Origin: Candidatus Hadarchaeum sp.
Lineage (GTDB): Archaea > Hadarchaeota > Hadarchaeia > Hadarchaeales > Hadarchaeaceae
Assembly (NCBI GenBank): GCA_020725055.1
Contig: DYFS01000002.1
Location: 622 to 64,621 of the forward strand
Direction: 5' to 3'
Length of the DNA: 64,000 nucleotides
A program made the position numbers and the translations under genes. Positions 2,083 through 59,626 of this stretch are shown here, in pieces. Numbering within the stretch: position 1 is the stretch's first letter; every line of letters begins with the position of its first letter. The notes beneath the pieces were generated by a model. It did not search any database and was not told where the DNA came from. It saw only the letters and a program-made list of their open reading frames with translations.

Positions 2083-2457
2083 TTAAAGACATAAGTATCG
2101 AAACATTTCGTCCGCAAAAAAATCCTTGTTTTTGATCTGTTTTCTAATCACGCGTTTCATTTCCTTTGTGCTGTATAAGAGCTTGTTCCCGAGCTCTTTT
2201 TTGATGTCTTTCCCGCGCGGCTCAACGGGGTTGAGCTCGGGCGTGTATGGCAGGAAGAACACGAACTTCAGCCTGTGTTCGTTCGCCGCAGCCCACGCTT
2301 TCACCTTCTTCCCTCTGTGCCACCGTGCGTTGTCCAGCAGAAGCAGAACTTTTTTTCTCTTTTTCAGCAGCTTGCGGAGAAATGCGATGAATACCCGTTG
2401 ATTCACCCTCTTGCTGAACTGACACCAGAAGCTGCGTCTCCCGAGCGCACCTGTCAT
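2083..2457 (-). CDS. IS630 transposase OrfB (DDE catalytic part). It is probably expressed as an OrfAB fusion by a -1 frameshift at 2615-2621.
   Basis: DNARWH and LPYTPELNPVE motifs. The -1 frame is open from the A7 run (2615-2621, minus strand) down to this ORF. The fusion reads ...HFKKK|IHRLIGRY...ALYCLDESAIVLQPYLTYCW...MTGALG. Confidence 0.55.
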   Translation of the reverse strand: MTGALGRRSFWCQFSKRVNQRVFIAFLRKLLKKRKKVLLLLDNARWHRGKKVKAWAAANEHRLKFVFFLPYTPELNPVEPRGKDIKKELGNKLLYSTKEMKRVIRKQIKNKDFFADEMFRYLCL

Positions 2458-2543
2458 GTAAAATCGTTCTCGGCTGTGATTGACGGCGGCGGTTGGCCTA
2501 CCACCCCGTCTGTGCCAACAATATGTCAGATATGGCTGCAGGA

Positions 2544-3119
2544 CTATTGCGCTCTCGTCCAGACAGTAGAGCGCGAATCCGCGCGCCCTGTATCTTCCGA
2601 TGAGTCGGTGAATCTTTTTTTAAAATGCTCCTGCGAGCGTTTTGGCGCGGCTTTGTAGTGCCTCTGTCTGGGCTTCTGGCAGGTGAAGCCGAGCTTGTGC
2701 AGCAACCTCGTCATGTGGCGCTCCACAAATGAGGCGCCGAATCTCTTTCGCACGTGTTCTTGTACAAGCTTTCTCGTCCACAGCTGCTCACCGTATCCGC
2801 ACGCCTGCGGACCTTTCAAAAGATCCGCTCTCAACTGTTTCAGTTGGCTCTTTTTCAGCTTGGGCGGTCTCCCTGGCTGTTTCTTATCACGAACACCAGC
2901 TAAGCCACGCTGTTCAAATCTGTGTAGCCAGCCATGTACAGTTCGTCTCGGCTTGTTAATCGATGCCGCGATATCATCTATTGACAGCCCTTCCTTCCTC
3001 TTTATCGCGGCAAGCAGCCTGAGCTTTCCCTTCGCGCTGTCCTCTTTATCATACAGCAAACGAAGCATACGCAAGGGTACCCCGCGCAAAAATGCATCGC
3101 CACGTTTGAGTTCCCACAT
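2544..3119 (-). CDS. IS630 transposase OrfA (HTH DNA-binding part)
   Basis: MWELKRGDAFLRG...GRPPKLKKSQLKQL is a helix-turn-helix of the IS630/Tc1 type. It ends just after an A7 run. Confidence 0.6.
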   Translation of the reverse strand: MWELKRGDAFLRGVPLRMLRLLYDKEDSAKGKLRLLAAIKRKEGLSIDDIAASINKPRRTVHGWLHRFEQRGLAGVRDKKQPGRPPKLKKSQLKQLRADLLKGPQACGYGEQLWTRKLVQEHVRKRFGASFVERHMTRLLHKLGFTCQKPRQRHYKAAPKRSQEHFKKRFTDSSEDTGRADSRSTVWTRAQ

Positions 3120-22568: not shown

Positions 22569-23102
22569 ATGGTCAGGCCGACCATTTTGCCCCTGAGCAA
22601 GGGGGAGATAAAGGAAATAGAGGAGTTCGCAGCCAAAGCGAAATCTTCAAGGGAGTACAAGAGAGCTCAAGCGGTGCTTTGTAAATCGAAGGGGATGTCG
22701 GCTACGAAGATAGCCGAGGCCCTCGGCGTGCACTGGAGGACGGTCCAAACGTGGATTGCGAATTACAGTGAGCGAGGGATGGTGAGTTTCAAAGATAGGT
22801 CGAGATCAGGAAGACCGCCGAAACTTACGGAGGAAGCCAAGCGGAAGCTCCTGAGCGCTGCGCTGAAGAGCCCGAGGCTTTTCGGCTTTTTGAAGAACAA
22901 CTGGAGTCTAGAGATGCTTGGGCTCTACCTGAAGCGCGAAACAGGGGTGGACATAAGCAAGAGCCACATCCAGAGACTCCTGAGAAAGCACGAAATAGTT
23001 TATAAGAGACCGAAGCTCGTTGCGCCCGAAAAACGTGGAAAGAGGGCCAAGAAAGTCGAAAACTACAAGCGGGTCGCCAGCGCCCTCCGAAAAAAAGGGT
23101 GA
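22569..23102 (+). CDS. IS630 transposase OrfA (HTH part)
   Basis: MVRPTILPLSKGE...GRPPKLTEEAKRKLL. It ends 4 codons after the A7 run at 23090-23096. Confidence 0.6.
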   Translation: MVRPTILPLSKGEIKEIEEFAAKAKSSREYKRAQAVLCKSKGMSATKIAEALGVHWRTVQTWIANYSERGMVSFKDRSRSGRPPKLTEEAKRKLLSAALKSPRLFGFLKNNWSLEMLGLYLKRETGVDISKSHIQRLLRKHEIVYKRPKLVAPEKRGKRAKKVENYKRVASALRKKG

Positions 23103-23596
23103 TGGTGGCTTTCGAGGACGAGACTTGGGCGGAACTTCTGCCGAAGCTGTGGAAGTGCTGGTACATCAAAGGCAAACAGCTCGAGATCGAGACGCCTGGG
23201 ATAAACGAGCGGATAAACGTGTTCATAACGCTGGACTTCGCCGGCGGCGAGCTGATCTACAGCATTCACCAGAGAAGGAGGAGCAGGGAATTCAAGTACC
23301 ACTTGAGGAAGGTGATGGAGCGAGCGAGGAAAGGGAGGTTCAAGCGGGTGATCCTGATAGCGGACAACTCGCCGGTACACCGTAGTGTCGAGAGCAGGAG
23401 ATTTCTCAGGAAAAACACGGGTTTCCTAAAGGTGCTCAACCTGCCTTCCTATTCGCCGAACCTGAATGAGGTCGAAGGCGTGAACAGGCAGCTCAAGCGA
23501 GATGTCTGCGCTAACTGGCACTACGGCAACCTCAAGGATCTAGGGAGGGTCGTCAGGGAATACCTCAAGAACTACACTACGGTAAAATTTAGGTGA
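23099..23596 (+). CDS. IS630 transposase OrfB (DDE part), in the -1 frame relative to OrfA
   Basis: ADNSPVHRS...LPSYSPNLNEVE (DDE motif). It overlaps OrfA by ATGA. cgA_AAA_AAA_ggg at 23090-23096 is in the X_XXY_YYZ register. A -1 slip gives ...ALRKK|RVMVAFEDETWAELLPKLWKCW. Confidence 0.6.
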   Translation: MMVAFEDETWAELLPKLWKCWYIKGKQLEIETPGINERINVFITLDFAGGELIYSIHQRRRSREFKYHLRKVMERARKGRFKRVILIADNSPVHRSVESRRFLRKNTGFLKVLNLPSYSPNLNEVEGVNRQLKRDVCANWHYGNLKDLGRVVREYLKNYTTVKFR

Positions 23597-41745: not shown

Positions 41746-43569
41746 ATGTGTGGCATCTTCGGTTGCCTGTTGAAAGGGGGTAGTGCTGCACCCCTCATTC
41801 ACGTGGCGTTGAAGCGCCTGGAGTACCGCGGTTACGACTCAGTCGGGGCGGCGACGGTTTACGAAGGCCGCTTGTACGTGAAGAAAGACCAAGGAAACGT
41901 CGATGCTGTCCACGCAAAGCTGCACTTGGACAACTTGCCGGGCAGGCTGGGAATCGGCCATACGCGCTGGGCGACACACGGGGCGCCACTCCAGAAAAAC
42001 GCTCATCCACAGCTCGACTGCGACAACCGTATAGCGGTGGTTCACAACGGCGTGCTCGAAAATTTTTCTGGCCTCAGGCAGGAGCTGGAGGAGCGGGGGC
42101 ACGTCTTCAGATCAAAAACGGACACCGAAGTCATCCCGCACTTGATCGAGGAATCCATGAAGGCTGGGCTTGGTTTTGCCGATGCAGTGCGTGAGGCCGT
42201 GAAGAGGCTTGAGGGATCATACGCGATAGCTGCGATCTGTACCCAGGAGCCAGACAAAATAGTCTGCGCGCGCAAGGAGAGCCCGTTGGTCGTGGGGATC
42301 GGTGATAGCTCAATTTACTGTGCGTCTGATATCCCCGCGTTCCTCCCGCTGACAAAACGGGCGATTGCCATGCGCGACGGCGAGTTTGCCATCCTATCCG
42401 ACGCCGGGGCCGAGATCAAAAAAATCGCCGACTGGAGCCCGGTTGAGCGGGAGCCCGAAACCATCACGTGGGATCTCGAAATGGCTGAAAAACTCGGTTA
42501 CCCGTACTTCATGATCAAAGAGATCCACGAACAACCGGAATCCCTGAGGAACACACTCAGGCTTCAGGATACCTACTTGGACCTGATGGCGACTTTTCTC
42601 GACAGGGCGCGGGAGGTCTTCCTCGTGGCGTGCGGCACCTCCTACCACGCCTGCCTCGCAGCCTCGCACATGTTCTCCAAGCTCGCGTTCAGGAGCACCC
42701 AGCCGATAATTGCTTCAGAATTCGTCCAGCGCGCCGGTGACTCGATCAGCGTTGACAGCACCGTGCTTGCGGTGAGCCAATCGGGGGAGACAGCCGATAC
42801 CCTGAGCGCTGTGATGCATGCGAGCAACCGCGCTGCGACCATCTTGGGGTTGACGAACGTCATCGGCTCAACCTTGACGAGGGTTTCAAGGACCTACACA
42901 TGCCAGCAGTCCGGGCCTGAGATAGGGGTGGCTGCGACAAAAACATTCACGGCGCAGGTCTCGGTGCTCGCGCAAATCGCGATAAAACTCGGCGAGAAGC
43001 GAGGGAAGCTATTCCACGAAGAGGCAAAGACGCTCAGGAAAAAGCTACAGCAGATTCCTGAGATCGTTGAGCGGATAATCGCGACCCAAGAAGAGAAAAT
43101 CAAGGGGCTAGCGAAAAAATATAGGGACAAGCGGTGCTTCTTCTTCCTCGGGCGGGGGATAAGCACGGCGACCGCCTCTGAGGGCATGCTGAAACTTATG
43201 GAAATCGCCTACGTGCCAGCGATCACCTACCCTGCCGGTGAGAGCAAGCACGGCCCCATCAGCCTAATAGAGGAGGGCTTCCCCGTGGTTTTCGTCTGCC
43301 CTAACGACAGTACGCGCAAGGCGACAATCGGCAACATCATGGAGATGAAGGCAAGGGGGGCCGTTGTTCTCGCGATCATCGAGGAGGGAGACGAGGAGAT
43401 AAAGAATTTGGCGGACGATTACGTTGAGGTGCCTAAAGGCGTGCCGGAGGTCTTAACCCCGATCCCTTACGTCGTGCCGCTGCAGCTTTTCGCATATCAT
43501 ATGGCGATAGAGCGTGGATGTAACCCGGATATGCCGAGAAATCTTGCGAAGTCTGTCACGGTCTTATGA
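41746..43569 (+). CDS. glmS: Glutamine--fructose-6-phosphate aminotransferase
   Basis: MCGIFG gives the N-terminal nucleophile Cys. The glutaminase domain is followed by two SIS domains. 607 aa. Confidence 0.9.
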   Translation: MCGIFGCLLKGGSAAPLIHVALKRLEYRGYDSVGAATVYEGRLYVKKDQGNVDAVHAKLHLDNLPGRLGIGHTRWATHGAPLQKNAHPQLDCDNRIAVVHNGVLENFSGLRQELEERGHVFRSKTDTEVIPHLIEESMKAGLGFADAVREAVKRLEGSYAIAAICTQEPDKIVCARKESPLVVGIGDSSIYCASDIPAFLPLTKRAIAMRDGEFAILSDAGAEIKKIADWSPVEREPETITWDLEMAEKLGYPYFMIKEIHEQPESLRNTLRLQDTYLDLMATFLDRAREVFLVACGTSYHACLAASHMFSKLAFRSTQPIIASEFVQRAGDSISVDSTVLAVSQSGETADTLSAVMHASNRAATILGLTNVIGSTLTRVSRTYTCQQSGPEIGVAATKTFTAQVSVLAQIAIKLGEKRGKLFHEEAKTLRKKLQQIPEIVERIIATQEEKIKGLAKKYRDKRCFFFLGRGISTATASEGMLKLMEIAYVPAITYPAGESKHGPISLIEEGFPVVFVCPNDSTRKATIGNIMEMKARGAVVLAIIEEGDEEIKNLADDYVEVPKGVPEVLTPIPYVVPLQLFAYHMAIERGCNPDMPRNLAKSVTVL

Positions 43570-45465
43570 AGTTTCAGTTCTAAATTCAAACTTTCGTAGC
43601 TCGCGCTCCAGCAGCTGGTGCACGAGCTTCCCGTCAACCCGGCCGCGGACTTTCCCCATTAAAACACCCATCAGCGGCTGTAGGGCACCAACGCCGCGCT
43701 TTTTGACTAACTCCCAGTTCTCCCGAACCACCTCAGAAACCATCTTCGAGAGCTCAGCTTCTGTGATTCTCCCAAGACCTAGCCGCTGCACAGCGTCCTG
43801 CACGCCGATTCCGCCTGCAACCTCCCGCAGCACATCGGGCACCGCTTCCTTCGCAAGCTCGCCCTTGGCGATGAGACTAAAAATTTCGTCAAAAACCGCC
43901 TTCTGGATGTTATCCACCGCCACCCCCTCGCGTTTCAGGCCGACGAGCGTCTCTTCCAAGGTTGTGGCGACCAGCGTCGGCTCGACCGCGTGTTTTCTCA
44001 CGAGCTCTTCGAACAGCCCGAGATTTTCAGATAGACTCATCCGCTCCGCAAGCTCTCTGCTCAGCCCGTACTCCTCCACGTACCGCTTGCGCCTCTGTTC
44101 CAGCGGCTCTGGTAGCCTCTTTCTGATTTGCTCCAACCTTTTCTCATCTATGACCATCGGCGGGATATCGGTCTCAACGTACATCCGTGCCGCCCCTGGC
44201 AGCGGGCGCATGAACTCCGTGTTACCGTCGGGCAATGCCCTCCGCGTCTCCTCGGGTACAGCGAGCAGGGCTTGGTTGGCTCTAACAACCACCGCGCCGA
44301 GCGCCTTCTCTGCACTTTCCTTCCCAGCCGCCACGATCACCACCGCATCGCCCGGGGATGCCCTCAGCACCCCTCTTAGCTTTTCGACCTCCCCCACAGA
44401 TATCCCGTAGCCGGGCAATTCGTCGGTGTGGAAGATGCCACCAACTCCGCCGTAGACCTTGGCGTAATCCGCAAGTTCGGTCCCAAACCTCCTGCCGGGC
44501 TGCAGCTCCCCCCCAACCAAACCAGCGAACTTCGGCAACTTGACCGCCAAAACCACGCCTCGCCTCGCCAGAACGCTCGCTATTACCTTACACCTAGTGC
44601 CAGAGAAGATTTTGCTCACGTCCACGATTTCACGCGCGACCTCGGTGGCGCCGCGCTTCTTTAGCTCATCACTCACTCCCAAAAGCGCGAGCTGCCTTCT
44701 AACCTCTCTCTCGATGACCGCCGGGATCAAAGCGAGCTCCTGGACCCCCTTGATCTCCTGCCGCGCCCCATCCCTGATCGAGACGTTTATGTCTTGGCGA
44801 ATTGTCCCGATGCCGCGCTTCACCTTGCTTGTGGCACGCATGAGCTGCCCAACCATCAGCGCAACCTCAGCTGGCGTCTGGGGGTCTGTGAAATCGGGCC
44901 CGGTGGCGATTTCAACGAGCGGTATCCCCAGCCTGTCCAGCCTGTAGTCGATGAACTCCGCATCCTCACCCACTTTTCTTGCCGCGTCCTCCTCTAAGCA
45001 GATAGTTTGAATTCGCGCCATGCCTTTTTTCGTTTCCAGGTAGCCTTCGGTTGCTATGAGCATCGTCCGCTGAAAGCCGGAGGTATTGCTCCCGTCGATG
45101 ATAGTTTTGCGCATAACGTGGATTTCGTCGACTGGTTTAGCATTAAGCAACAGTGCAACTTCAAGCGCGATATCAAGTGCTTCTTCGTTGACCGGGTGCG
45201 GTGGTTCACAATCAAGCTCGACTAGGCAAACATTATCAGTAACTTGATACCTAAATCCCTTGCCTTTTATTGCCTCCGCAAGCGCGGCTCGATCCACCTC
45301 GCCCAACTCGCTTTGCGTTGGACGCAACCTTCGCTTCACCTTAAGAGCGGGTTCCACATCATACAAAACTGATGGGCAATTGCAGAACAATTTATGGGTG
45401 TCCAGCTCTTGGTGTATCTCAAAGCCTACCTTCAGTCCTAATTTTTCATACATGTTTTCTCTCAT
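43564..45465 (-). CDS. gatE: Glu-tRNA(Gln) amidotransferase subunit E
   Basis: YEKLGLKVGFEIHQELDTHKLFCNCPS. 633 aa with GatB-like and GAD domains. Overlaps glmS by 6 nt. Confidence 0.85.
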   Translation of the reverse strand: MRENMYEKLGLKVGFEIHQELDTHKLFCNCPSVLYDVEPALKVKRRLRPTQSELGEVDRAALAEAIKGKGFRYQVTDNVCLVELDCEPPHPVNEEALDIALEVALLLNAKPVDEIHVMRKTIIDGSNTSGFQRTMLIATEGYLETKKGMARIQTICLEEDAARKVGEDAEFIDYRLDRLGIPLVEIATGPDFTDPQTPAEVALMVGQLMRATSKVKRGIGTIRQDINVSIRDGARQEIKGVQELALIPAVIEREVRRQLALLGVSDELKKRGATEVAREIVDVSKIFSGTRCKVIASVLARRGVVLAVKLPKFAGLVGGELQPGRRFGTELADYAKVYGGVGGIFHTDELPGYGISVGEVEKLRGVLRASPGDAVVIVAAGKESAEKALGAVVVRANQALLAVPEETRRALPDGNTEFMRPLPGAARMYVETDIPPMVIDEKRLEQIRKRLPEPLEQRRKRYVEEYGLSRELAERMSLSENLGLFEELVRKHAVEPTLVATTLEETLVGLKREGVAVDNIQKAVFDEIFSLIAKGELAKEAVPDVLREVAGGIGVQDAVQRLGLGRITEAELSKMVSEVVRENWELVKKRGVGALQPLMGVLMGKVRGRVDGKLVHQLLERELRKFEFRTETS

Positions 45466-46862
45466 TTTCTCGCCTGCGAGTGAGTTGGAGTGAAAGCCGG
45501 CTTCGGGAACACATCGGGTCTAGTCCTCGGGGTGATCTCACCGGCCAAGTTCTTCCGCATCAGCTCGGAAACTTTTTTGGGATTCTTGGTTTGGCCGAGC
45601 GCGTACATCAATTTCACCCAGGCTACTTCTGGAAGCATATCCTCCCCTGGTATCACCCCGAGCTGGAGCAAATCACGACCCGTCGAGTAGACCTTCATGT
45701 CAACCCGTCCCCAGAGGCACTGCGAGGTCATCACGACCGCCGTGCCGCGTTTCACCGCTCGCTTGATGGCGGGAAACAGGTATTCAGGGGTATGGCCGAG
45801 GCCGGTGCCCTCGAGGACGATGCCCCTGTAACCAGAATTGAGCAGCGAGTCTACGACCTTTGGCTTCATGCCGGGACAAACCTTAACAAGCGCCACCATC
45901 GGATCAAACCTCGCATCTACCCTGACCCTGCCCCCTTTTGCCCTGTTGTACCCGCCGAGCGTGGTTATTTCGCCACCTCTGACCATCCCGATCGGCAAAT
46001 CGTTTACCGTTTGGAAAGTGTCCCTACGGCTGGTGTGGCATTTTCTGACCTTCGCGCCACGGTGAATTAAGCAAAAATCGTCTTCAGCTGAACCGTGCAT
46101 GACCACGCAAACTTCGGCTATATCTGACTTGCTCGCGACCGACACGGCACTGAGCAGGTTCAACGCTGCATCGCTGCTCGGCCTGTCCGAGGAACGCTGC
46201 GAGCCGACGAGCACGACAGGCCCGGAAAGGTTTTTTAAGGCGAAGCTTAGAGCTGCTGCAGTGTACCCCATCGTGTCCGTGCCGTGAGCGATCACAACAC
46301 CCCGCGCCCTGGAGTTCAGCTCCCTCGCCGCAGCCCTGGCGATTTTTATCCAGAGCTCTGGCGTCATGTTTTCGCTGAACACGTTGCACACGGGGGCGGT
46401 TCTGATGTTCGCGAGCCCCACCAGCTCTGGTACTGCAGCATAGAGCTCCTTTGCTGTGAAAGCGGGATAAACGGCACCGGTGCGGTAGTCCACGCGGCTC
46501 GCTATGGTTCCCCCGGTGCCCAAAATCGACACGCTGGGTTTGCTGGGGTCGGGCTTGAATTCCGGGGGGGGCAGGCCCATCTTCGGCACCCTCCCAACCC
46601 CGACTTTGCTAACCTTCGCCCCCCTCGTCAGCCTTACCCCGATGTTATAGCCGCTGTTGAGTTTTATCACGAGATGGTTCGGATCACCGAGCTCGGTGCG
46701 CGGCATTAGAATCCCCTCGTGGATTTGGCCGGCTTTTTCTATCCGTAGCCTATCCCCAACTTTAGCTGAAATTGACCTGAGGGTTTTCAAAGCTTTGCCC
46801 TGATAACCGAACACGCGAGCACCAGTAAGACTAACGTCTGCACGCTTAAATCGGTAATCCAA
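45462..46862 (-). CDS. gatD: Glu-tRNA(Gln) amidotransferase subunit D (asparaginase-like)
   Basis: ILGTGGTIASRVDYRTG...HGTDTM is an asparaginase motif. It overlaps gatE by 4 nt. Confidence 0.85.
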   Translation of the reverse strand: MDYRFKRADVSLTGARVFGYQGKALKTLRSISAKVGDRLRIEKAGQIHEGILMPRTELGDPNHLVIKLNSGYNIGVRLTRGAKVSKVGVGRVPKMGLPPPEFKPDPSKPSVSILGTGGTIASRVDYRTGAVYPAFTAKELYAAVPELVGLANIRTAPVCNVFSENMTPELWIKIARAAARELNSRARGVVIAHGTDTMGYTAAALSFALKNLSGPVVLVGSQRSSDRPSSDAALNLLSAVSVASKSDIAEVCVVMHGSAEDDFCLIHRGAKVRKCHTSRRDTFQTVNDLPIGMVRGGEITTLGGYNRAKGGRVRVDARFDPMVALVKVCPGMKPKVVDSLLNSGYRGIVLEGTGLGHTPEYLFPAIKRAVKRGTAVVMTSQCLWGRVDMKVYSTGRDLLQLGVIPGEDMLPEVAWVKLMYALGQTKNPKKVSELMRKNLAGEITPRTRPDVFPKPAFTPTHSQARK

Positions 46863-46926
46863 AAGTGGCTGTTCAAAGCGTGAAAAGCTTTAAGGCTGTG
46901 GCAGTTAAGAGAACTTGGCGTTTGAA

Positions 46927-47394
46927 ATGAAAGTTCTAATCCAGGGGCTCGGCGAGGTTCCGACTACAATCGAGTTTGCGTTGGAGAAAGAAAGGCCAGA
47001 CGTCACCCATATCTTGTGCTCCGAGTACCAGATGCAAATCGTGGCATCTCACGCCGGTTATAACGAAACCAACGAAGCAGTCATCAAAAAGGCTGCTGAA
47101 AAAACAAACACCAAAGTCCTGTTTCAGAAATGTGATATCTTTGATCCGAAGTCAGTTGGCGAGGCAATTGCTGGAGTGATCAAGCAACTCAAGCCCGAAG
47201 ATGAAATTGTGATAAACTACACGGGCGGCGGCGCCAGCGTCAAGCTGCTCCTAGGCGCAACCGCGGTCGTCCTTTCGCGACTCATGCCGATCCGCATCAT
47301 CTATGCGCTCCGCTACAAGGGCGGCATCGAGAGATACGCGGACCAGACTAAGGAGCTGAAAGAGATTTTCAAGAACCTCTACGAGTTCTTCTGA
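46927..47394 (+). CDS. Small stand-alone Rossmann-like protein with CARF-like features (Csa3 N-domain-like), copy A
   Basis: MKVLIQGLGEV...PDVTHILCSE...KCDIFDP...EIVINYTGGGASVKLLLGATAVVLS. The pattern h-N-x-(S/T)-G-G...K after beta4 and the overall spacing resemble CARF (compare Csa3 VVNLSGGMRILTLA). 155 aa with no HTH. Tentative. Confidence 0.35.
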   Translation: MKVLIQGLGEVPTTIEFALEKERPDVTHILCSEYQMQIVASHAGYNETNEAVIKKAAEKTNTKVLFQKCDIFDPKSVGEAIAGVIKQLKPEDEIVINYTGGGASVKLLLGATAVVLSRLMPIRIIYALRYKGGIERYADQTKELKEIFKNLYEFF

Positions 47395-47404
47395 GTGATT
47401 CCAG

Positions 47405-47871
47405 ATGAAGGTTCTCGTTCAGGGTCTCGGTGAAGTTCCTGCGACCATCGAGCTCGCCCTAGAAAAAGAGAGGCCTGATGTCACCTATGTCGTGTGCTCT
47501 GAGTATCAGTTGAAAAAAGTCGCCTCTGCCGCAGGCTACACCGAGCCGAACGAGAGCGTCATCAGGGGGCAGCCGAAAAATTAAACACGAAGGTAATCTT
47601 CAAGTTATGTGATATTTTTGACCCAGCATCCATGTGCGCTACAATTGCCGAGGTTGTCCGAGAGCTAAAACCAACCCATGATGTAGTGGTAAATTACACG
47701 GGCGGAGCTGCGAATGTGAAGCTGTTCTTGGGTACTACGGCTGTTGCTCTATCGAGTTTCCTCCGCGTCAAGATTATTTACGCGCTTCGGTACGAGGATA
47801 GAATAGAGGTGTATAAAAACCAGACCGAGGAACTCAAGTCCATCTTCAAGCGGCTTTACGAGTTCCTTTAA
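47405..47871 (+). pseudogene. Paralogue (about 65% identical) of the CARF-like gene, copy B. It is interrupted by a 1-nt frameshift in a G5 run near 47570-47574.
   Basis: The N-terminal part (MKVLVQGLGEVPATIELALEKERPDVTYVVCSEYQ...ESVIRG) is in one frame. The remainder (AAEKLNTKVIFKLCDIFDP...VVNYTGGAANVKLFLGTTAVALS...YEFL) is in the -1 frame. The join aligns codon for codon with copy A. Confidence 0.4.
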
Positions 47872-47874
47872 ATT

Positions 47875-49068
47875 CTAGCCGATTTTATTCATGAACTCCT
47901 CGATCCTGTCCATCCCTTTCGCAATATTCTCCATCGAGGTAGCATACGAGAGCCTTAGGTGGTTGTCATCGCCGAAGACAGCCCCTGGAACCACAGCTAC
48001 TCTGGACTCTGTGAGGAGCAGCTCGGTCAACGAAATCGAGTCTTTGATCGTTTGCCCCCCATGCCTCTTACCCAAGATTTGCGACACGTCTGGAAAAGCG
48101 TAGAAAGCACCTTCCGGCATGAGGCAACTGATCCCCCGGATGGAATTCAGCCTCTCCACGATATAGTTTCTCCTCTCTGCAAACGCTCGAACCATCTCCC
48201 CCGCGCTCTCCTGCGGGCCTTCTAGGGCTTCCAAAGCGGCTTTTTGGCTGATCGATGTTGGATTCGAAGTGGAGTGATCTTGCAGGTTGGACATCACCTG
48301 GATTATCTCCCTCGGGCCCGCGGCGTAGCCAATCCGCCAACCGGTCATGGAATAGGATTTGGAGACGCCGTTCACCACGATGGTCAACCCCTTCATCTCT
48401 GGATTCAGGGAAGCGATGCTGACGTGCTCTCTGCCATCGTAGATGATTTTTTCATAAATTTCGTCGGAGATGCAGCAGATCCCGGCCTCCACCAAAATTT
48501 CGGCGAGGGGGCGCAGCTCTTCCTTGGTGTAAACCATCCCTGTTGGGTTTGAGGGGGAATTCAGGATGACGAGTTTTGTTCTCGGCGTGATTGAATCGCG
48601 CAGTTGTTCGGGCGTGATTTTGAAATTGTTTTGCTGGGTGGTTTTAATCACGACCAAGTTTGCCCCCGCGAGCTTGATCATCTCGGGGTAGCTGACCCAG
48701 TAGGGGGAAGGCAGAATCACCTCGTCACCCCCGTCACACAAGGCGAGGATTGCGTTGAAAATAGAATGTTTCGCCCCGCATGATACGAGGATCTCCTCTT
48801 GCATGTAGTCAAGGTCATTGTCCCTTTTGAGTTTTTTACAAATCGCCCTTTTTAACTCCGGGATGCCAGAGGTGGGAGTATATTTCGTGAAGCCGGCATC
48901 TACCGCTTTCTTCGCCGCTTCTTTGATGTTCGCCGGTGTATCAAAATCTGGCTCCCCCGCACCAAACCCGATGATGTCGATGCCCTTGGCCTGCATCTCC
49001 TTCGCCTTTGCCGTTATGCCCAAAGTCGGCGAGGGGGCGATTGAGCTCACCCTTTTCGAGAACCGCAT
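47875..49068 (-). CDS. Aspartate/aromatic aminotransferase (fold-type I, class I)
   Basis: NPTGMVY, GVSKSYSMTGWRIGYAAGP (PLP Lys) and FGAGEPDF motifs. 397 aa. Confidence 0.8.
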   Translation of the reverse strand: MRFSKRVSSIAPSPTLGITAKAKEMQAKGIDIIGFGAGEPDFDTPANIKEAAKKAVDAGFTKYTPTSGIPELKRAICKKLKRDNDLDYMQEEILVSCGAKHSIFNAILALCDGGDEVILPSPYWVSYPEMIKLAGANLVVIKTTQQNNFKITPEQLRDSITPRTKLVILNSPSNPTGMVYTKEELRPLAEILVEAGICCISDEIYEKIIYDGREHVSIASLNPEMKGLTIVVNGVSKSYSMTGWRIGYAAGPREIIQVMSNLQDHSTSNPTSISQKAALEALEGPQESAGEMVRAFAERRNYIVERLNSIRGISCLMPEGAFYAFPDVSQILGKRHGGQTIKDSISLTELLLTESRVAVVPGAVFGDDNHLRLSYATSMENIAKGMDRIEEFMNKIG

Positions 49069-49276: not shown

Positions 49277-50449
49277 ATGGCCCCTCACCATCTAAAGCTT
49301 TTGGGACGAGTATTTCAATTATCAGTCGGTGACAGAATGGTTGAAACCCTCGTGCTAAAGGTAAACCCAAAACAACCAGAGCTAGAGAAGATTCGGGTTG
49401 CGGCACAAGTCGTTCGTAAGGGTGGGTTAGTCGTATTTCCAACCGAAACCGTGTATGGTCTCGGCGCCAACGCACTCGACGATGCGGCTGTTTTGAAGAT
49501 CTTTAAAGCGAAGGAAAGGCCCGCGGATAACCCTTTAATCGTGCACATAGCTGACGGGGACGATTTACACATCCTGGCTGAGCACGTTCCGAGCGAGGCA
49601 AAAAAACTCATCACCCAATTTTGGCCTGGTCCCCTAACGCTGCTTCTGAGAAAGTCAGAGCTTGTGCCGGATGCTACGACCGCTGGTTTGGCCACGGTGG
49701 CGATCAGGATGCCGAGCCACCCGATAGCCAGGGCGCTAATAGCTGAAGCAGACGTGCCAATAGCCGCGCCGAGCGCGAACCTTGCGGGTAGGCCAAGTCC
49801 GACGACCGCTAAGCACGTGCTAGATGACCTCTCAGGCAGGATAAATATCGTAATCGATGGCGGTGCAGTTGGTTTCGGCGTTGAATCGACTGTTCTTGAC
49901 CTAACTACTGAGGTGCCTACCGTTCTCCGGCCAGGCCCTGTGACGGTTGAGGAACTCGGCCAAGTTTTGGGCGAGGTCAAAGTCCACCCGGTTGCGAAGG
50001 CTGAGGCACCGGCAGAAGTCGTCGTAGCGCAGGCCCCTGGGATGAAATACAAACACTATGCACCGAGAGCCGAAGTGATTTTAGTTGAAGGGGCGCTGGA
50101 CGGCATGGTTTCAAAGATTCAAGAGCTAACAGTCAAGCACAAAAGCGCTGGTAAAAAGGTCGGCATCATGGCAACCGTAGAAACCGCACGCAAATATCGC
50201 GCCGACGTTGTGAAGGTAGTTGGGGTGCGTCGAAAACCTAAAACGATTGCTAAAAACTTGTTCAAAGCATTCAGGGAGTTTGATGAGATGGGAGTCGACA
50301 TCGTCCTAGCTGAAGGCTTGAAACCCAAGAGTATCGGACTCGCGATCATGAATAGACTGAGAAAGGCAGCAGGTTACAACATCGTCCGTGTACGTGGTTC
50401 AACGAAACGGCTAAGATCGAACGCAAAACGTGGGTTTTATAAAAGCTAA
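49277..50449 (+). CDS. sua5: Threonylcarbamoyl-AMP synthase Sua5 (YrdC domain plus Sua5 C-terminal domain)
   Basis: VVFPTETVYGLGANALDDAAVLKIFKAKERPADNPLIVHIAD. The start may be at 49337 (MVETLV). Confidence 0.8.
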   Translation: MAPHHLKLLGRVFQLSVGDRMVETLVLKVNPKQPELEKIRVAAQVVRKGGLVVFPTETVYGLGANALDDAAVLKIFKAKERPADNPLIVHIADGDDLHILAEHVPSEAKKLITQFWPGPLTLLLRKSELVPDATTAGLATVAIRMPSHPIARALIAEADVPIAAPSANLAGRPSPTTAKHVLDDLSGRINIVIDGGAVGFGVESTVLDLTTEVPTVLRPGPVTVEELGQVLGEVKVHPVAKAEAPAEVVVAQAPGMKYKHYAPRAEVILVEGALDGMVSKIQELTVKHKSAGKKVGIMATVETARKYRADVVKVVGVRRKPKTIAKNLFKAFREFDEMGVDIVLAEGLKPKSIGLAIMNRLRKAAGYNIVRVRGSTKRLRSNAKRGFYKS

Positions 50450-56173: not shown

Positions 56174-57820
56174 TTAACCGAGCGAACCCCGCATCTTGCC
56201 GAGCTTCGAAAGCAGGTCACGTGCGAGGGGGTCGAGCTTCGCGAGCTCCATCGCTGGCAACGTTTCAGCCTTGCCGCGCATTATGCTCAGGTAGGGTTCG
56301 ACGATGCTCACCATGGAGCCATAGCTCGGATCTGGTTCGAATTCTAGGCCGAGGAGCTCGCGGATTAAATCGATGTCCTCGGTCACGTCGCGGATGACCT
56401 CTTGAGGTAAGAAGTGCCCAGCTTTCTTCAGATCGAGAAAACGCCCGGCGAACTCTAGGTCGGCAGGCAAGCTCGGATAGTACTCCTTCAGCAATACTTC
56501 AAACACGTCCTTGTTTTTCTGACTCAATTCCAGCAAACCGCGCCCCGTGCCCACGAACTCAGGCGGCAGACACGCTGTGTAAAGCGAGCCGGTATAGCCA
56601 ATTGCACGTGGCAGCTCAAGGTCTTCTCCCTTTAGCTCGACCAGCTGCTTTGCGAGGTCTGTTTCTCCAGCCAGTGGTTTACACAGCTCGGCTAACTCAC
56701 GGGTCTGCGGTCCCCAGCGGGCGTAGCCAGCTTTGCCCGCGCGAACGAGTCTATCCCTTTGCTGGGGCAGGATATCCGAGATCTGTTTCACCGCAGGGGC
56801 AACGCGCATTAGGGTTGAGATGTAGTGCTTTGCGAACACGCCACATATGTAAAATACGTGCTGCCGTTGTTCCCCGGTGTAAGACAAGGGGCGCCCCTTC
56901 GGCAACTCTTGACGTAGGATTTTCACCAATTGTCTCGCTTTTTCTAGCTCATGGTCGTAACGGATGCCGGATTGAACTGTTATCGTGCGGACGCCGCAAT
57001 ACTCACGCAACACATTCTGGATGTTTTCAACCGTTACGTGTCCTCGGAACGGTAGCGCGCCGCCGCCGAATATAGGCGCCACGGGTACCCCCTCCTCCGC
57101 CCCGAATACGTAGGCATCCGCTATCGCAAGCTTGCACGCCATAACGGAGGCGATCTGACCGTACATTAGGGCTGAGTCCGACTTGCCGACGAAGACGCGT
57201 AGGTAGGGTATCTGCACACCAAGTTCGCTTCTGCACCCATGAGTATACTCAGCGAGCATTTTGCGGATGGATAGCTGTTGTGGCACCTCCTCGACCAAAG
57301 GGATTAACTCGATCGCTTGGCGGGTGGCCTCGCCGCCTGCAGCCCTCGCTAACCCTTCCATGGCAATTATCCGCTGACGGACCTCAACCAGCTCTGCGCC
57401 CGTCATCGTCATCGGATGTACCACCTCTATGACGCTCGCGCCAATGTGACGGGTGCGGTAGTTCGCTTCGACGGCAGCGAGTATCGACGCATACTGCCTA
57501 AAAATAGTTTCTTTCTCGGCGCTGGGCACCCGGGGCGTGATGAACACGTCGCGTCCGGGGACCAGCTTGAGTTCGTCGAGCAATTTGGTCGCGATATTCG
57601 CCACTTGGTGGTAGGGTGTCATTTTGCCCTCGTAGTCGACCATATACTCATCGCAGCCCAATCCAGCATCCTGCGGGGCCAGGCACTGTAGCGCTTCGAT
57701 TTCCTCGTCCTGCACAGGCACGTATCGCGACGCCGAGTCTGGGTGCTGTGTGGCCATGGCGCACGGGACGCGGGCACCGCGGCGTTCAACGAGTTTGCCC
57801 ATTTCTCCCACGCTTATCAC
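56174..57820 (-). CDS. ppcA: Phosphoenolpyruvate carboxylase, archaeal type
   Basis: 548 aa. N-terminal CAMATQHPDS plus overall size matches archaeal-type PEPC. Confidence 0.7.
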   Translation of the reverse strand: MISVGEMGKLVERRGARVPCAMATQHPDSASRYVPVQDEEIEALQCLAPQDAGLGCDEYMVDYEGKMTPYHQVANIATKLLDELKLVPGRDVFITPRVPSAEKETIFRQYASILAAVEANYRTRHIGASVIEVVHPMTMTGAELVEVRQRIIAMEGLARAAGGEATRQAIELIPLVEEVPQQLSIRKMLAEYTHGCRSELGVQIPYLRVFVGKSDSALMYGQIASVMACKLAIADAYVFGAEEGVPVAPIFGGGALPFRGHVTVENIQNVLREYCGVRTITVQSGIRYDHELEKARQLVKILRQELPKGRPLSYTGEQRQHVFYICGVFAKHYISTLMRVAPAVKQISDILPQQRDRLVRAGKAGYARWGPQTRELAELCKPLAGETDLAKQLVELKGEDLELPRAIGYTGSLYTACLPPEFVGTGRGLLELSQKNKDVFEVLLKEYYPSLPADLEFAGRFLDLKKAGHFLPQEVIRDVTEDIDLIRELLGLEFEPDPSYGSMVSIVEPYLSIMRGKAETLPAMELAKLDPLARDLLSKLGKMRGSLG

Positions 57821-57865
57821 CCCAATTACTAAAACGTTAAGCTTTTAAGCATTTTCGTTAACAAA

Positions 57866-58363
57866 ATGTTAAGGATAAGAATGAAGAAGTTGGACAAAGA
57901 AATACTGCTTCAACTGATAGAAGACAGCGAGCAACCCACATATCAAATAGCAAAAAAAGTCGGGACCACCAGGCAAACCGTCGCCAAAAAAATCGCTCAA
58001 TTCAAAGAAGCAGGGATAATCAGTTCATTCGTACCCAAGCTGAATCCGGAGAAGTTCGGCCTAGCCACGAAGGCATATGTGTTTCTACGTGAGGATCCGC
58101 GAACAGAGCTCAGAAGGAAAAACGAGGATGCCATCAAGAAGTTTCACGAGGTCTCCGGGTTCTACCGCCTCTTCGGCAGATACAGCGCAATCCTAGAAGT
58201 CAGGGTGAGGGGCAGCAAGGAGCTGACAAACCTGGTTAAGCGAATCCATGGCCTGAGGGGGGTGAGGGAAACCGAGACATTCATAGTTCACAGCTCGGTG
58301 AAAGACATGCCCGAGGCGCCATTTGTGCAAATTTTGAAATTAGGAGCTAAAACACCCGGCTAG
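57866..58363 (+). CDS. Lrp/AsnC-family transcriptional regulator
   Basis: An N-terminal HTH (LDKEILLQLIEDSEQPTYQIAKKVGTTRQTVAKKI) is followed by a RAM domain. Confidence 0.8.
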   Translation: MLRIRMKKLDKEILLQLIEDSEQPTYQIAKKVGTTRQTVAKKIAQFKEAGIISSFVPKLNPEKFGLATKAYVFLREDPRTELRRKNEDAIKKFHEVSGFYRLFGRYSAILEVRVRGSKELTNLVKRIHGLRGVRETETFIVHSSVKDMPEAPFVQILKLGAKTPG

Positions 58364-59121
58364 GTGAGGTCGCCACACGCGCAAAAAACCTCGTGCACGA
58401 TGTCGTAGAGCTCCCGCATCCCCTCGCCAGTTTTTGCGCTCGCCTTCACCACCCTGGCAGCGGGCAGAAGATCCGGCAACACCCTCGATAACCCTAACGT
58501 AAGGTCTATCATCACCCCCGAGCTTTCCTTCACCACTCGCTCCTTCAGAAGCTCTGCGTCTGCTAGCATGCGGTCGATTTCAGCCAGCTTGCCTTGGGCC
58601 AGATCTATCTTGTTCAAGACACTGATGGCAGGAACCCCCAGCCTGAGCCCTATCGATAGCCCAAGCAAACGTGTAAACACGAGCCCAGTCGCTTTCGCTG
58701 CGACCTCTGCGTCTGTCAGGAAGAGCGAGATTGTCACCCCCTCCATGAGCTTCGCTATCTCGGGTCCACCATGAAAGAGAAAAACTTCCATCTGCCCTGG
58801 GGTATCGATGAGCCTGATGTCGGCTTCGATCTCATTGATCTGCTTCGAAAATTCCCCCGCCCTCTGCTCTAGCATCTCAGAAGCGCGGACCATAGCCCCG
58901 TTCGGCCCGAGACTCTCATCGCGCATTATCTGAGCAATGGTGAAGTAGTCACGGATGTCGAAGTCCGGCTCAAACGGAACGAAGTCGCACCCGGGGTCGA
59001 GGTTGATGTAGGCCACCTTTTGGTCGGTGTTTTGTTCGATCCACTTGCCGAAGGTTGCCGTCAGCGCACTCTTCCCAGCACCAGCCGTGCCTAATACAAT
59101 CAGGTTGAGTGGGCGTGGCAT
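58360..59121 (-). CDS. GPN-loop GTPase (PAB0955/XAB1 family)
   Basis: LIVLGTAGAGKSALT is a P-loop. IDTPGQMEVF and NKIDL are also present. Confidence 0.75.
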   Translation of the reverse strand: MPRPLNLIVLGTAGAGKSALTATFGKWIEQNTDQKVAYINLDPGCDFVPFEPDFDIRDYFTIAQIMRDESLGPNGAMVRASEMLEQRAGEFSKQINEIEADIRLIDTPGQMEVFLFHGGPEIAKLMEGVTISLFLTDAEVAAKATGLVFTRLLGLSIGLRLGVPAISVLNKIDLAQGKLAEIDRMLADAELLKERVVKESSGVMIDLTLGLSRVLPDLLPAARVVKASAKTGEGMRELYDIVHEVFCACGDLT

Positions 59122-59125
59122 GCTT

Positions 59126-59626
59126 TCAACTCGTTATGGATTTCATGATTTCAGCGTAAACCTCGGCAGAACATCTCCAGCCGAGCTTTATCATCTCATC
59201 CACCTTCGCTTCCTCCACTGTTAACAGCCCAAGTTTCAAGAGCCTGAGCAGGATGTAACCAGTACCTCTATTAAGGACATCGTTAACGTCTGCCACCCCT
59301 CTAGCTTTGTCTTCATCCACGATAGCGGTTGCGTTCAACTCCTTGGCTAGGGCCAAAACCTCAGCGTCCGCTTTGTATAAGCCGGGGATCCGAGACAAAG
59401 TTTGGAGAAATTTTTTGTTTTTGACTTCTTTGACCTCAAGAACCCTCCTATCGAGAACTTTTTCAATCAGGAGGGCATCAGCCGCTCCTCTTTTCTTACC
59501 CTTAACAACAACCTCTTGGTGTACCGTACCCGGAATAACCTTTTTCTCGGGCAGTTTTTCCAGAAGTTCCAAAACGTTAACTTTAGCCAAGTAAATCAAG
59601 GGGGTCGAGTTTAAGACCAAGGCCAT
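59126..59626 (-). CDS. COG2405/DUF3368 PIN-like predicted nucleic-acid-binding protein (putative toxin)
   Basis: 166 aa. Starts MALVLNSTPLIYLAKVNVLELL, a PIN-like first strand. It is paired with the upstream UPF0175 gene. Confidence 0.45.
   Translation of the reverse strand: MALVLNSTPLIYLAKVNVLELLEKLPEKKVIPGTVHQEVVVKGKKRGAADALLIEKVLDRRVLEVKEVKNKKFLQTLSRIPGLYKADAEVLALAKELNATAIVDEDKARGVADVNDVLNRGTGYILLRLLKLGLLTVEEAKVDEMIKLGWRCSAEVYAEIMKSITS

Follow-up and report, generated by a model that had tools for sequence, protein, structure and literature searches.

Minimal stand-alone CARF proteins of Hadarchaeota: an intact copy and a frameshifted copy in tandem at a housekeeping locus

Results

A tandem pair of small CARF genes

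The DNA analysed here, which we call the window, is a 64,000-nt stretch of Candidatus Hadarchaeum sp. (Hadarchaeota; assembly GCA_020725055.1, contig DYFS01000002.1, positions 622-64,621 of the forward strand), and our subject is a pair of adjacent genes within it, copy A and copy B, whose products belong by profile and predicted fold to the CARF superfamily (Table 1). The original prediction had described paralogues of about 155 aa and about 65% identity lying head to tail between gatD and an aminotransferase, the second of them split by a 1-nt frameshift in a G5 run into halves that match the first, and the coordinates and alignment agree with this description throughout. Copy A is intact; the list of open reading frames (ORFs) starts it at a TTG at 46915, whereas all homologues begin with MKVLIQGLGE, which corresponds to the ATG at 46927. 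In copy B, frame 0 runs into a stop at 47582-47584 after 59 codons and the remaining homology continues in another frame. Insertion of one G yields an uninterrupted 155 aa that align to copy A without gaps, with 101 of 155 residues identical (65%; nucleotide identity 66%). The 10-nt spacer between the copies suggests that they are co-transcribed, and a putative promoter precedes copy A, read from the letters alone and not with an archaeal promoter model.

Fold and profile assignment

Both copies are members of the CARF superfamily as judged by profile searches and by the predicted fold. The PADLOC profile PDLC01794 (CARF1--CARF) matches residues 1-152 of copy A (E 1.4e-42, 143 bits) and of the repaired copy B (E 1.9e-38, 130 bits), and both copies give weaker matches to Csx1, Csm6, Can1 and other CARF profiles. 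Profile-profile comparison with hhalign against P0151, a CRISPR-associated CARF protein of the TIGR02710 family, gives a probability of 96% (E 2e-9, 133 aligned columns). Copy A was modelled with AlphaFold2 from a 62-sequence alignment, and the model reaches a predicted local distance difference test (pLDDT) score of 95.4 and a predicted template modelling (pTM) score of 0.91; the CARF fold fills all 155 aa of the model, and fold comparison identifies a Rossmann-like alpha/beta architecture with CARF topology, nearest to solved CARF domains. Pfam and NCBIfam contain nothing that scores over threshold for either copy, the sub-threshold matches being HFX_2341_N (PF19810; 23.3 and 18.3 bits, where the cut-off is 30) and weak SDR-like noise. 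Sequence searches of the PDB, whether with a single protein or with the family profile, returned weak SDR-like noise alone, and fold comparison was required. The viral fold library BFVD gave no convincing match (TM <=0.5) and no sign of a viral ring-nuclease relative.

The SDR-like signal, which falls in the SDR beta3-beta4 region (CDv.d...v.....vvNnaG, E 0.007-0.1), might be read together with the names SDR, homoserine dehydrogenase or GAPDH that some sources give to family members, and with an invariant cysteine (Cys69) that would fit an enzyme, as signs that the proteins belong, in truncated or minimal form, to a different Rossmann-like family (SDR, LOG/SLOG or DprA-like) and have an enzymatic role; we consider this highly improbable, as neither SDR nor LOG/TIGR00725 receives the best profile or fold match, which goes to CARF. 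The resemblance to CARF proteins on which the original prediction was built is thereby upheld, and the placement in LOG/TIGR00725 or another non-CARF Rossmann family that it had named as the contrary outcome did not emerge.

Conserved residues and ligand motifs

Eleven residues are invariant in the family (Q6, L8, G9, P12, C69, N97, Y98, G101, V105, Y126 and T141), and the conserved stretches are QGLGEVP, in the region of beta1 and the following loop, CDxFD after beta3 and NYTGGxA after beta4. In the secondary structure of the model, most of the invariant residues lie at or just past the C-terminal ends of strands, a location that, going by general CARF architecture, would correspond to the ligand crevice. 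To our knowledge, an invariant cysteine in this region is not a usual CARF feature.

In the motif I region, which in CARF domains is a polar loop with Gly following beta1 (typically LG[ST]), the invariant or nearly invariant Q6-G-L8-G9-E10-V11-P12 aligns to LGGSLP of P0151, with the glycine kept and Glu10-Val11 at the Ser/Thr position; in the profile alignment, MKVLIQGLGEVP stands opposite MKVLLISLGGSLP, and NYTGGaAsVK opposite DYTGGTKSMS. Motif II ([DN]-x-[ST]-x-x-x-[RK]) is present in its first half, as N97-Y-T99-G-G-x-A103, with a nearly invariant alanine in place of the basic residue. The nearest lysine, K106, lies three residues past A103.

Loss of copy B

A protein identical to that of copy A is encoded on three further contigs, namely a 62-kb contig from the Joint Genome Institute (JGI; sample 3300029892) and contigs of the Logan assemblies SRR13164376 and SRR6828126. 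They are 99.7-99.95% identical to the window and none is identical to it, so they represent distinct haplotypes of one population. In all three (our loci L001, L002 and L003), copy B is broken at an identical G5, which brings the frameshift to four assemblies, including the window, from different samples; a G6 allele was seen in none of the four. In two of the three further assemblies (L001 and L003), copy B has also lost a second single nucleotide, outside any homopolymer. The haplotypes differ at 13 sites in about 12.5 kb, four of which fall in the 467 nt of copy B and none in copy A. The four consist of one synonymous change, V39I, the deletion, and R133G, the last at a position where the window haplotype, with Arg, has lost a family-conserved glycine. 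At the break site, intact orthologues read AGA AGG GCG GCC or AGA AAT GCC GCC, and the G run is therefore specific to the lineage of the window.

The homology of copy B is far beyond chance, since its halves match the hidden Markov model (HMM) of the family with E 2e-27 and 1.7e-44 in a six-frame search. Intact orthologues of copy B occur in L009 and L042-L044 (68-73% amino acid identity), and copy B retains all eleven invariant residues. Its ratio of nonsynonymous to synonymous substitution rates (dN/dS) is about 0.1 (0.11) against the L009/Yes71-22 orthologue, an indicative figure because dS is saturated or undefined. The low ratio and the retained residues together indicate that copy B was constrained for most of its history, until recently.

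We also considered whether the frameshift might entail no loss of function, full-length B being expressed because the break stems from faulty sequencing or assembly, lies in a phase-variable G tract, or is a site of programmed ribosomal or transcriptional frameshifting. The position of the break in a homopolymer and the intact invariant residues would fit such a scenario. However, error and phase variation sit poorly with a G5 that recurs across samples and pipelines (JGI and two Logan runs) with no G6 among them; a G5 tract is below known slippage tract lengths, and AGG GGG C is no X XXY YYZ heptamer; the second, non-homopolymer deletion is beyond rescue by a single recoding event; and polymorphism is enriched in B, including the loss of the conserved Gly133. 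We accordingly rejected sequencing error, phase variation and programmed recoding on the missing G6, the short non-slippery tract and the second deletion, and we regard continued production of full-length B as hardly credible. The frameshift common to four assemblies, the lack of a G6 allele and the second frameshift in two haplotypes favour pseudogenisation, which stands as the survivor of the three explanations offered by the original prediction, phase variation and sequencing error having fallen away. Read from the assembled sequences, copy B is a fixed pseudogene, real and recent, that is gathering further lesions. Such a frameshift is nothing unusual and shows a redundant paralogue in the course of being lost.

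A family of minimal CARF proteins in Hadarchaeota

A k-mer-seeded search recovered 134 homologues, nearly all of 153-184 aa, the named ones from metagenome-assembled genomes (MAGs) of Hadarchaeota/Hadarchaeales. When 1.84 billion cluster representatives were searched exhaustively with the family HMM, there were 32 hits, all of at most 215 aa except two marginal ones, P0151 (a CARF-HEPN protein, E 4.6e-4) and one spurious repeat protein. No family member among the 134 homologues and the 32 hits has a fused effector or helix-turn-helix (HTH) domain, so the lack of fusions already remarked in the original prediction for the pair itself extends to every detectable relative. In a scan of one genome per GTDB species, the family was found at 31 loci, all in Hadarchaeota/Hadesarchaea MAGs, and several genomes hold two or three unlinked paralogues.

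A neighbour-joining tree resolves four groups: clade 1 (A-type genes, one per genome, including copy A), clade B, and two deeper paralogue groups. Clade B, made up of window B and the second gene of Yes71-22, branches as the sister group of the whole of clade 1. Identity is 68-73% among B-type genes and 61-65% between B-type and A-type genes, and the two types differ consistently at residues 104 and 108, both on the same face of the helix after motif II. Wherever a B-type gene is found, it stands second in an A-B pair, 6-10 nt behind the A gene (in the window, L009, which equals L004, and L042-L044), and the pairs in L009 and L042-L044 are intact. In the closest relative, L045, whose copy A has 88% amino acid identity, there is A only, with no trace of B and 45 nt from A to the next gene. 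The position of B in the tree, the A-only state of this closest relative, and the fact that the A genes of A-B pairs are not monophyletic indicate an old origin of the B paralogue and its repeated loss. Strong purifying selection acts on copy A, whose dN/dS relative to the L045 orthologue is 0.077.

Three observations on individual loci may be recorded here. L009 and L017 (JASEJC010000026.1 and JASEGJ010000020.1) bear the label 'Candidatus Hodarchaeaceae', a name that NCBI taxonomy gives to an Asgard family; their CARF proteins share 73-74% identity with copy A, as do those of Hadarchaeota loci, L009 has the downstream PEPCK-AsnC-GPN-ELP3-Hel308 gene order and L017 the upstream gatE-gatD order (see below), and the label is probably a Hadarchaeaceae/Hodarchaeaceae naming error. 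At 3375-3834 of L036 (CAZCRN010000060.1), a family member lies in three frame pieces (HMM positions 1-87, 89-113 and 113-154) and represents either a second, independent pseudogene or a poor assembly. Finally, at 4002-5994 of L040, P0135 (181 aa), among the most divergent members, lies 31 nt 3' of a DHH/DHHA1 phosphoesterase gene on the same strand, a single instance of a pairing that would suit the turnover of a nucleotide signal; L040 is labelled 'bacterium', yet an archaeal-type Pilin_N gene is nearby.

Gene neighbourhoods

Each clade occupies its own conserved housekeeping synteny. Clade 1 genes follow gatE-gatD and are succeeded in some genomes by an aspartate aminotransferase (AspAT)-like gene, then by phosphoenolpyruvate carboxykinase (PEPCK; ATP- or GTP-type), AsnC, a GPN-loop GTPase, ELP3 and Hel308. 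Clade 2 genes (L019-L023, L027, L029 and L034-L036; for example, L027 10001-11725) have threonine synthase (NF006050, 347 bits) downstream on the same strand, at a distance of -4 to 77 nt in nine loci, and may form a CARF-thrC operon with it; upstream of them lie an HD/HD_assoc_2 phosphohydrolase and a 190-aa membrane protein. In the remaining deep group, a subclade (L026 and L030-L033) lies between MoaE, on its upstream side together with TBP, ThiI and EPSP synthase, and a hexapeptide-repeat protein on its downstream side. Neighbours that recur are AspAT, PEPCK or phosphoenolpyruvate carboxylase (PEPC), threonine synthase, a carbamoyltransferase and Sua5, and this recurring adjacency is suggestive of a functional tie of the family to the enzymes of oxaloacetate, aspartate and threonine.

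Table 1. Features of the 64,000-nt window, in window coordinates
Feature	Positions	Strand	Remarks
Transposase-related ORFs	~2083-3119	-	DDE_3 or HTH matches
Transposase-related ORFs	22569-23596	+	DDE_3 or HTH matches
glmS	41746-43569		607 aa; without intein
gatE/gatD	43564-46862	-	flank on the copy A side
Putative archaeal promoter	46882-46895	+	BRE-like purine-rich GAAAAG, then TATA-like CTTTAAGG; about 35 nt 5' of the copy A ATG; read by eye
Copy A	46927-47394	+	468 nt, 155 codons, intact; single-domain CARF protein, A-type, clade 1
A-B spacer	47395-47404	+	10 nt; 6-7 nt in intact pairs of relatives
Copy B	47405-47871	+	467 nt; frameshifted pseudogene of the B-type paralogue; 155 aa with one G restored
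G5 run in copy B	47565-47569	+	AGGGGGC; site of the inactivating 1-nt deletion
Second 1-nt deletion site in copy B	47611	+	deletion present in haplotypes L001 and L003, not in the window
AspAT-like aminotransferase	47875-49068	-	flank on the copy B side
Sua5	49277-50449	+	beyond the aminotransferase
AsnC-GPN block	56174-59121		headed by archaeal PEPC (PEPcase_2, E 1e-109), not PEPCK
PIN-like ORF	59126-59626	-	166 aa; PADLOC candidate-defence PDC-S70, E 1.4e-21

In the window, the AsnC-GPN block lies 9 kb from the CARF gene, and the genes between the two include AspAT, Sua5, a nitroreductase, form III RuBisCO, TIM and others. The glmS gene that lies 5' of gatE in the closest relative (L045, 1-1687) holds an intein (Intein_splicing and LAGLIDADG; product 1094 aa). 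Elsewhere in the window, DDE_3 transposase matches in two ORFs and HTH_23/28/29/32/33 matches in two others probably mark two IS630-like elements, each divided into an HTH ORF and a DDE ORF. The GC content of the first 4 kb of the window is lower, at 0.47 versus 0.55-0.62.

Defence and CRISPR context

A tandem-repeat scan detected no CRISPR-like or tandem array in the 64-kb window, and no cas genes were detected when PADLOC was run on its 69 ORFs of 90 aa or more, which bears out the earlier remark that none lie nearby. The PADLOC matches were the CARF gene itself and one PDC-S70 ORF, a PIN-like protein and the sole non-CARF match to the defence library; Pfam annotation portrays the window as a housekeeping region. 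Across the 31 loci, PADLOC found no Cas protein, component of the cyclic-oligonucleotide-based antiphage signalling system (CBASS) or nucleotide cyclase among 143 neighbour representatives, where the isolated matches were generic (PDC-S01, mad2/3/8, QatD, AriA and BrxP). Loci with precomputed Pfam annotation likewise showed no cas genes. The literature on Hadarchaeota CRISPR gave no information on type III systems in the phylum.

Discussion

The reading towards which we lean is that copy A is a vertically inherited CARF ligand-binding protein with a CRISPR-independent, housekeeping-type role, while its dispensable paralogue B is being lost. As do all characterised CARFs, copy A would form a dimer, and it would bind a small ligand, probably one containing an adenine nucleotide, in a pocket made up of the conserved loops. 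Having no effector domain, it might act by sequestering the ligand, by processing it, or by relaying a signal to a partner protein, and its role may be tied to the oxaloacetate, aspartate and threonine genes that adjoin the family. Where A and B are both present, they may form a putative A/B heterodimer. Copy B itself is an old paralogue, lost in most lineages and now being lost in the window species, where a fixed 1-nt deletion in a former G6 run has inactivated it recently and further lesions are accumulating in the population.

Several points weigh against this proposal. The ligand, dimer and partner of copy A are inferred, and the structure was predicted as a monomer. The nearest solved structures are all cyclic oligoadenylate (cOA) receptors of type III systems, and the family sits in the CARF1 group, home of Csm6 and Csx1. 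Around each locus, 10-20 kb were inspected, and type III CRISPR-Cas is possible elsewhere in the genomes. Furthermore, synteny conserved within a phylum is weak evidence for a functional link, and the neighbours of clade 1 are convergent or divergent, not co-oriented.

A more ambitious reading, which we put forward tentatively and hold to be possible, is that the minimal CARFs of Hadarchaeota constitute a non-defence, paralogue-expanded housekeeping family of sensors or enzymes for an endogenous, non-cOA ligand, wired into oxaloacetate, aspartate and threonine metabolism, with A-B pairs acting as asymmetric heterodimers. The altered pocket, with its Ala for the canonical Lys and the invariant Cys69, Gln6, Tyr98, Tyr126 and Thr141, would fit an endogenous ligand other than cOA, and the metabolic wiring is suggested by the location of one clade directly 5' of threonine synthase and of clade 1 beside AspAT and PEPCK.

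We find it unlikely that copy A is instead a trans-acting type III component, that is, a stand-alone Crn1-like ring nuclease or a cOA sponge damping signals from a Cas10 encoded elsewhere in the genome. The Crn1 ring nucleases (Sso2081, Sso1393 and Sis0455) are, like copy A, small and essentially CARF alone, and act without a fused effector. However, no cas gene was found near any of at least 31 loci, whereas type III loci are where ring nuclease genes typically lie (PMC12409355, PMC12669027). The family also differs from defence genes in its vertical inheritance, its two or three conserved paralogues per genome and a dN/dS of 0.08. In CARF ring nucleases, the catalytic Ser/Thr sits in the beta1 loop; here that loop has Glu-Val where P0151 has Gly-Ser, and Ala occupies the position of the GGTK lysine of P0151. 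As to membership of the Crn1 clade, the combination of a catalytic beta1-loop Ser and a C-terminal Lys was not found, and no PADLOC Crn1 profile was matched. The gene contexts and the altered motif II lead us to judge a CRISPR-independent role likelier than that of a ring nuclease or cOA sponge, and the cOA sensor role implied by the original prediction finds no support here, given the alanine in place of the motif-II lysine and the housekeeping-like vertical inheritance.

Comparison with other CARF proteins helps to place the family. Compared with the CARF domains of the type III effectors Can2 (8bao), Card1 (6wxw), TtCsm6 (8jbc), EiCsm6 (6tug), Can1 (6sce), Cad1 and Cam1, it lacks an effector domain, is 12-18% identical to them, has Ala103 for the motif-II Lys and is located away from cas genes. 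The TIGR02710 protein P0151 (396 aa) is the nearest multi-domain relative detectable by sequence, a relationship that is marginal at the HMM E-value given above, and proteins of that family carry a C-terminal extension past the CARF domain and the canonical GGTK lysine. The closest counterparts in architecture belong to PDLC01794, a group of stand-alone CARF proteins whose label follows the CARF census of Makarova et al. 2020. Both copies match this profile over their full length and share its CARF-alone architecture; the present family differs in being confined to Hadarchaeota, vertically inherited and without CRISPR linkage in the loci examined, and the group is without experimental characterisation.

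According to the 2025 CRISPR classification, CARF homologues are abundant outside CRISPR-Cas systems (PMC12669027). Among them, HFX_2341, a haloarchaeal Csa3-like CARF protein, is passed on vertically and has been conserved even where a species lacks CRISPR-Cas (PMC11434293), and it is a precedent for a vertically inherited, CRISPR-independent archaeal CARF protein. The HFX_2341/Csa3-like CARF-HTH proteins resemble the present family in being archaeal and vertically inherited, and there is weak Pfam similarity between them (23 bits). In contrast to those proteins, the present family has no HTH domain, so copy A cannot itself be a transcription factor. We rejected an identity as a Csa3/HFX_2341-like regulator, as the CARF fold takes up the whole of copy A and PF19810 stays under its threshold of 30 bits.

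In kind, these proteins are already known, as they match the profile of an existing stand-alone CARF1 group, of which they are an uncharacterised subfamily. As far as we could establish, what appears to be undescribed is that the family is confined to Hadarchaeota, that it divides into several syntenic paralogue lines, one of them directly 5' of threonine synthase, and that its motif-II lysine is replaced. CARF domains have been studied almost wholly as receptors for the cOA of type III systems, and few non-CRISPR homologues, HFX_2341 being one, have been characterised. With proteins that are very small (155 aa), highly conserved, well modelled and phylum-wide, the family would offer a tractable system for asking what CARFs sense without Cas10. 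Its significance would rise if the ligand proves to be other than cOA, and, should the tie to oxaloacetate, aspartate and threonine metabolism hold true, the minimal CARFs of Hadarchaeota would represent a CARF lineage that was either recruited into core metabolic regulation or belonged to it ancestrally.
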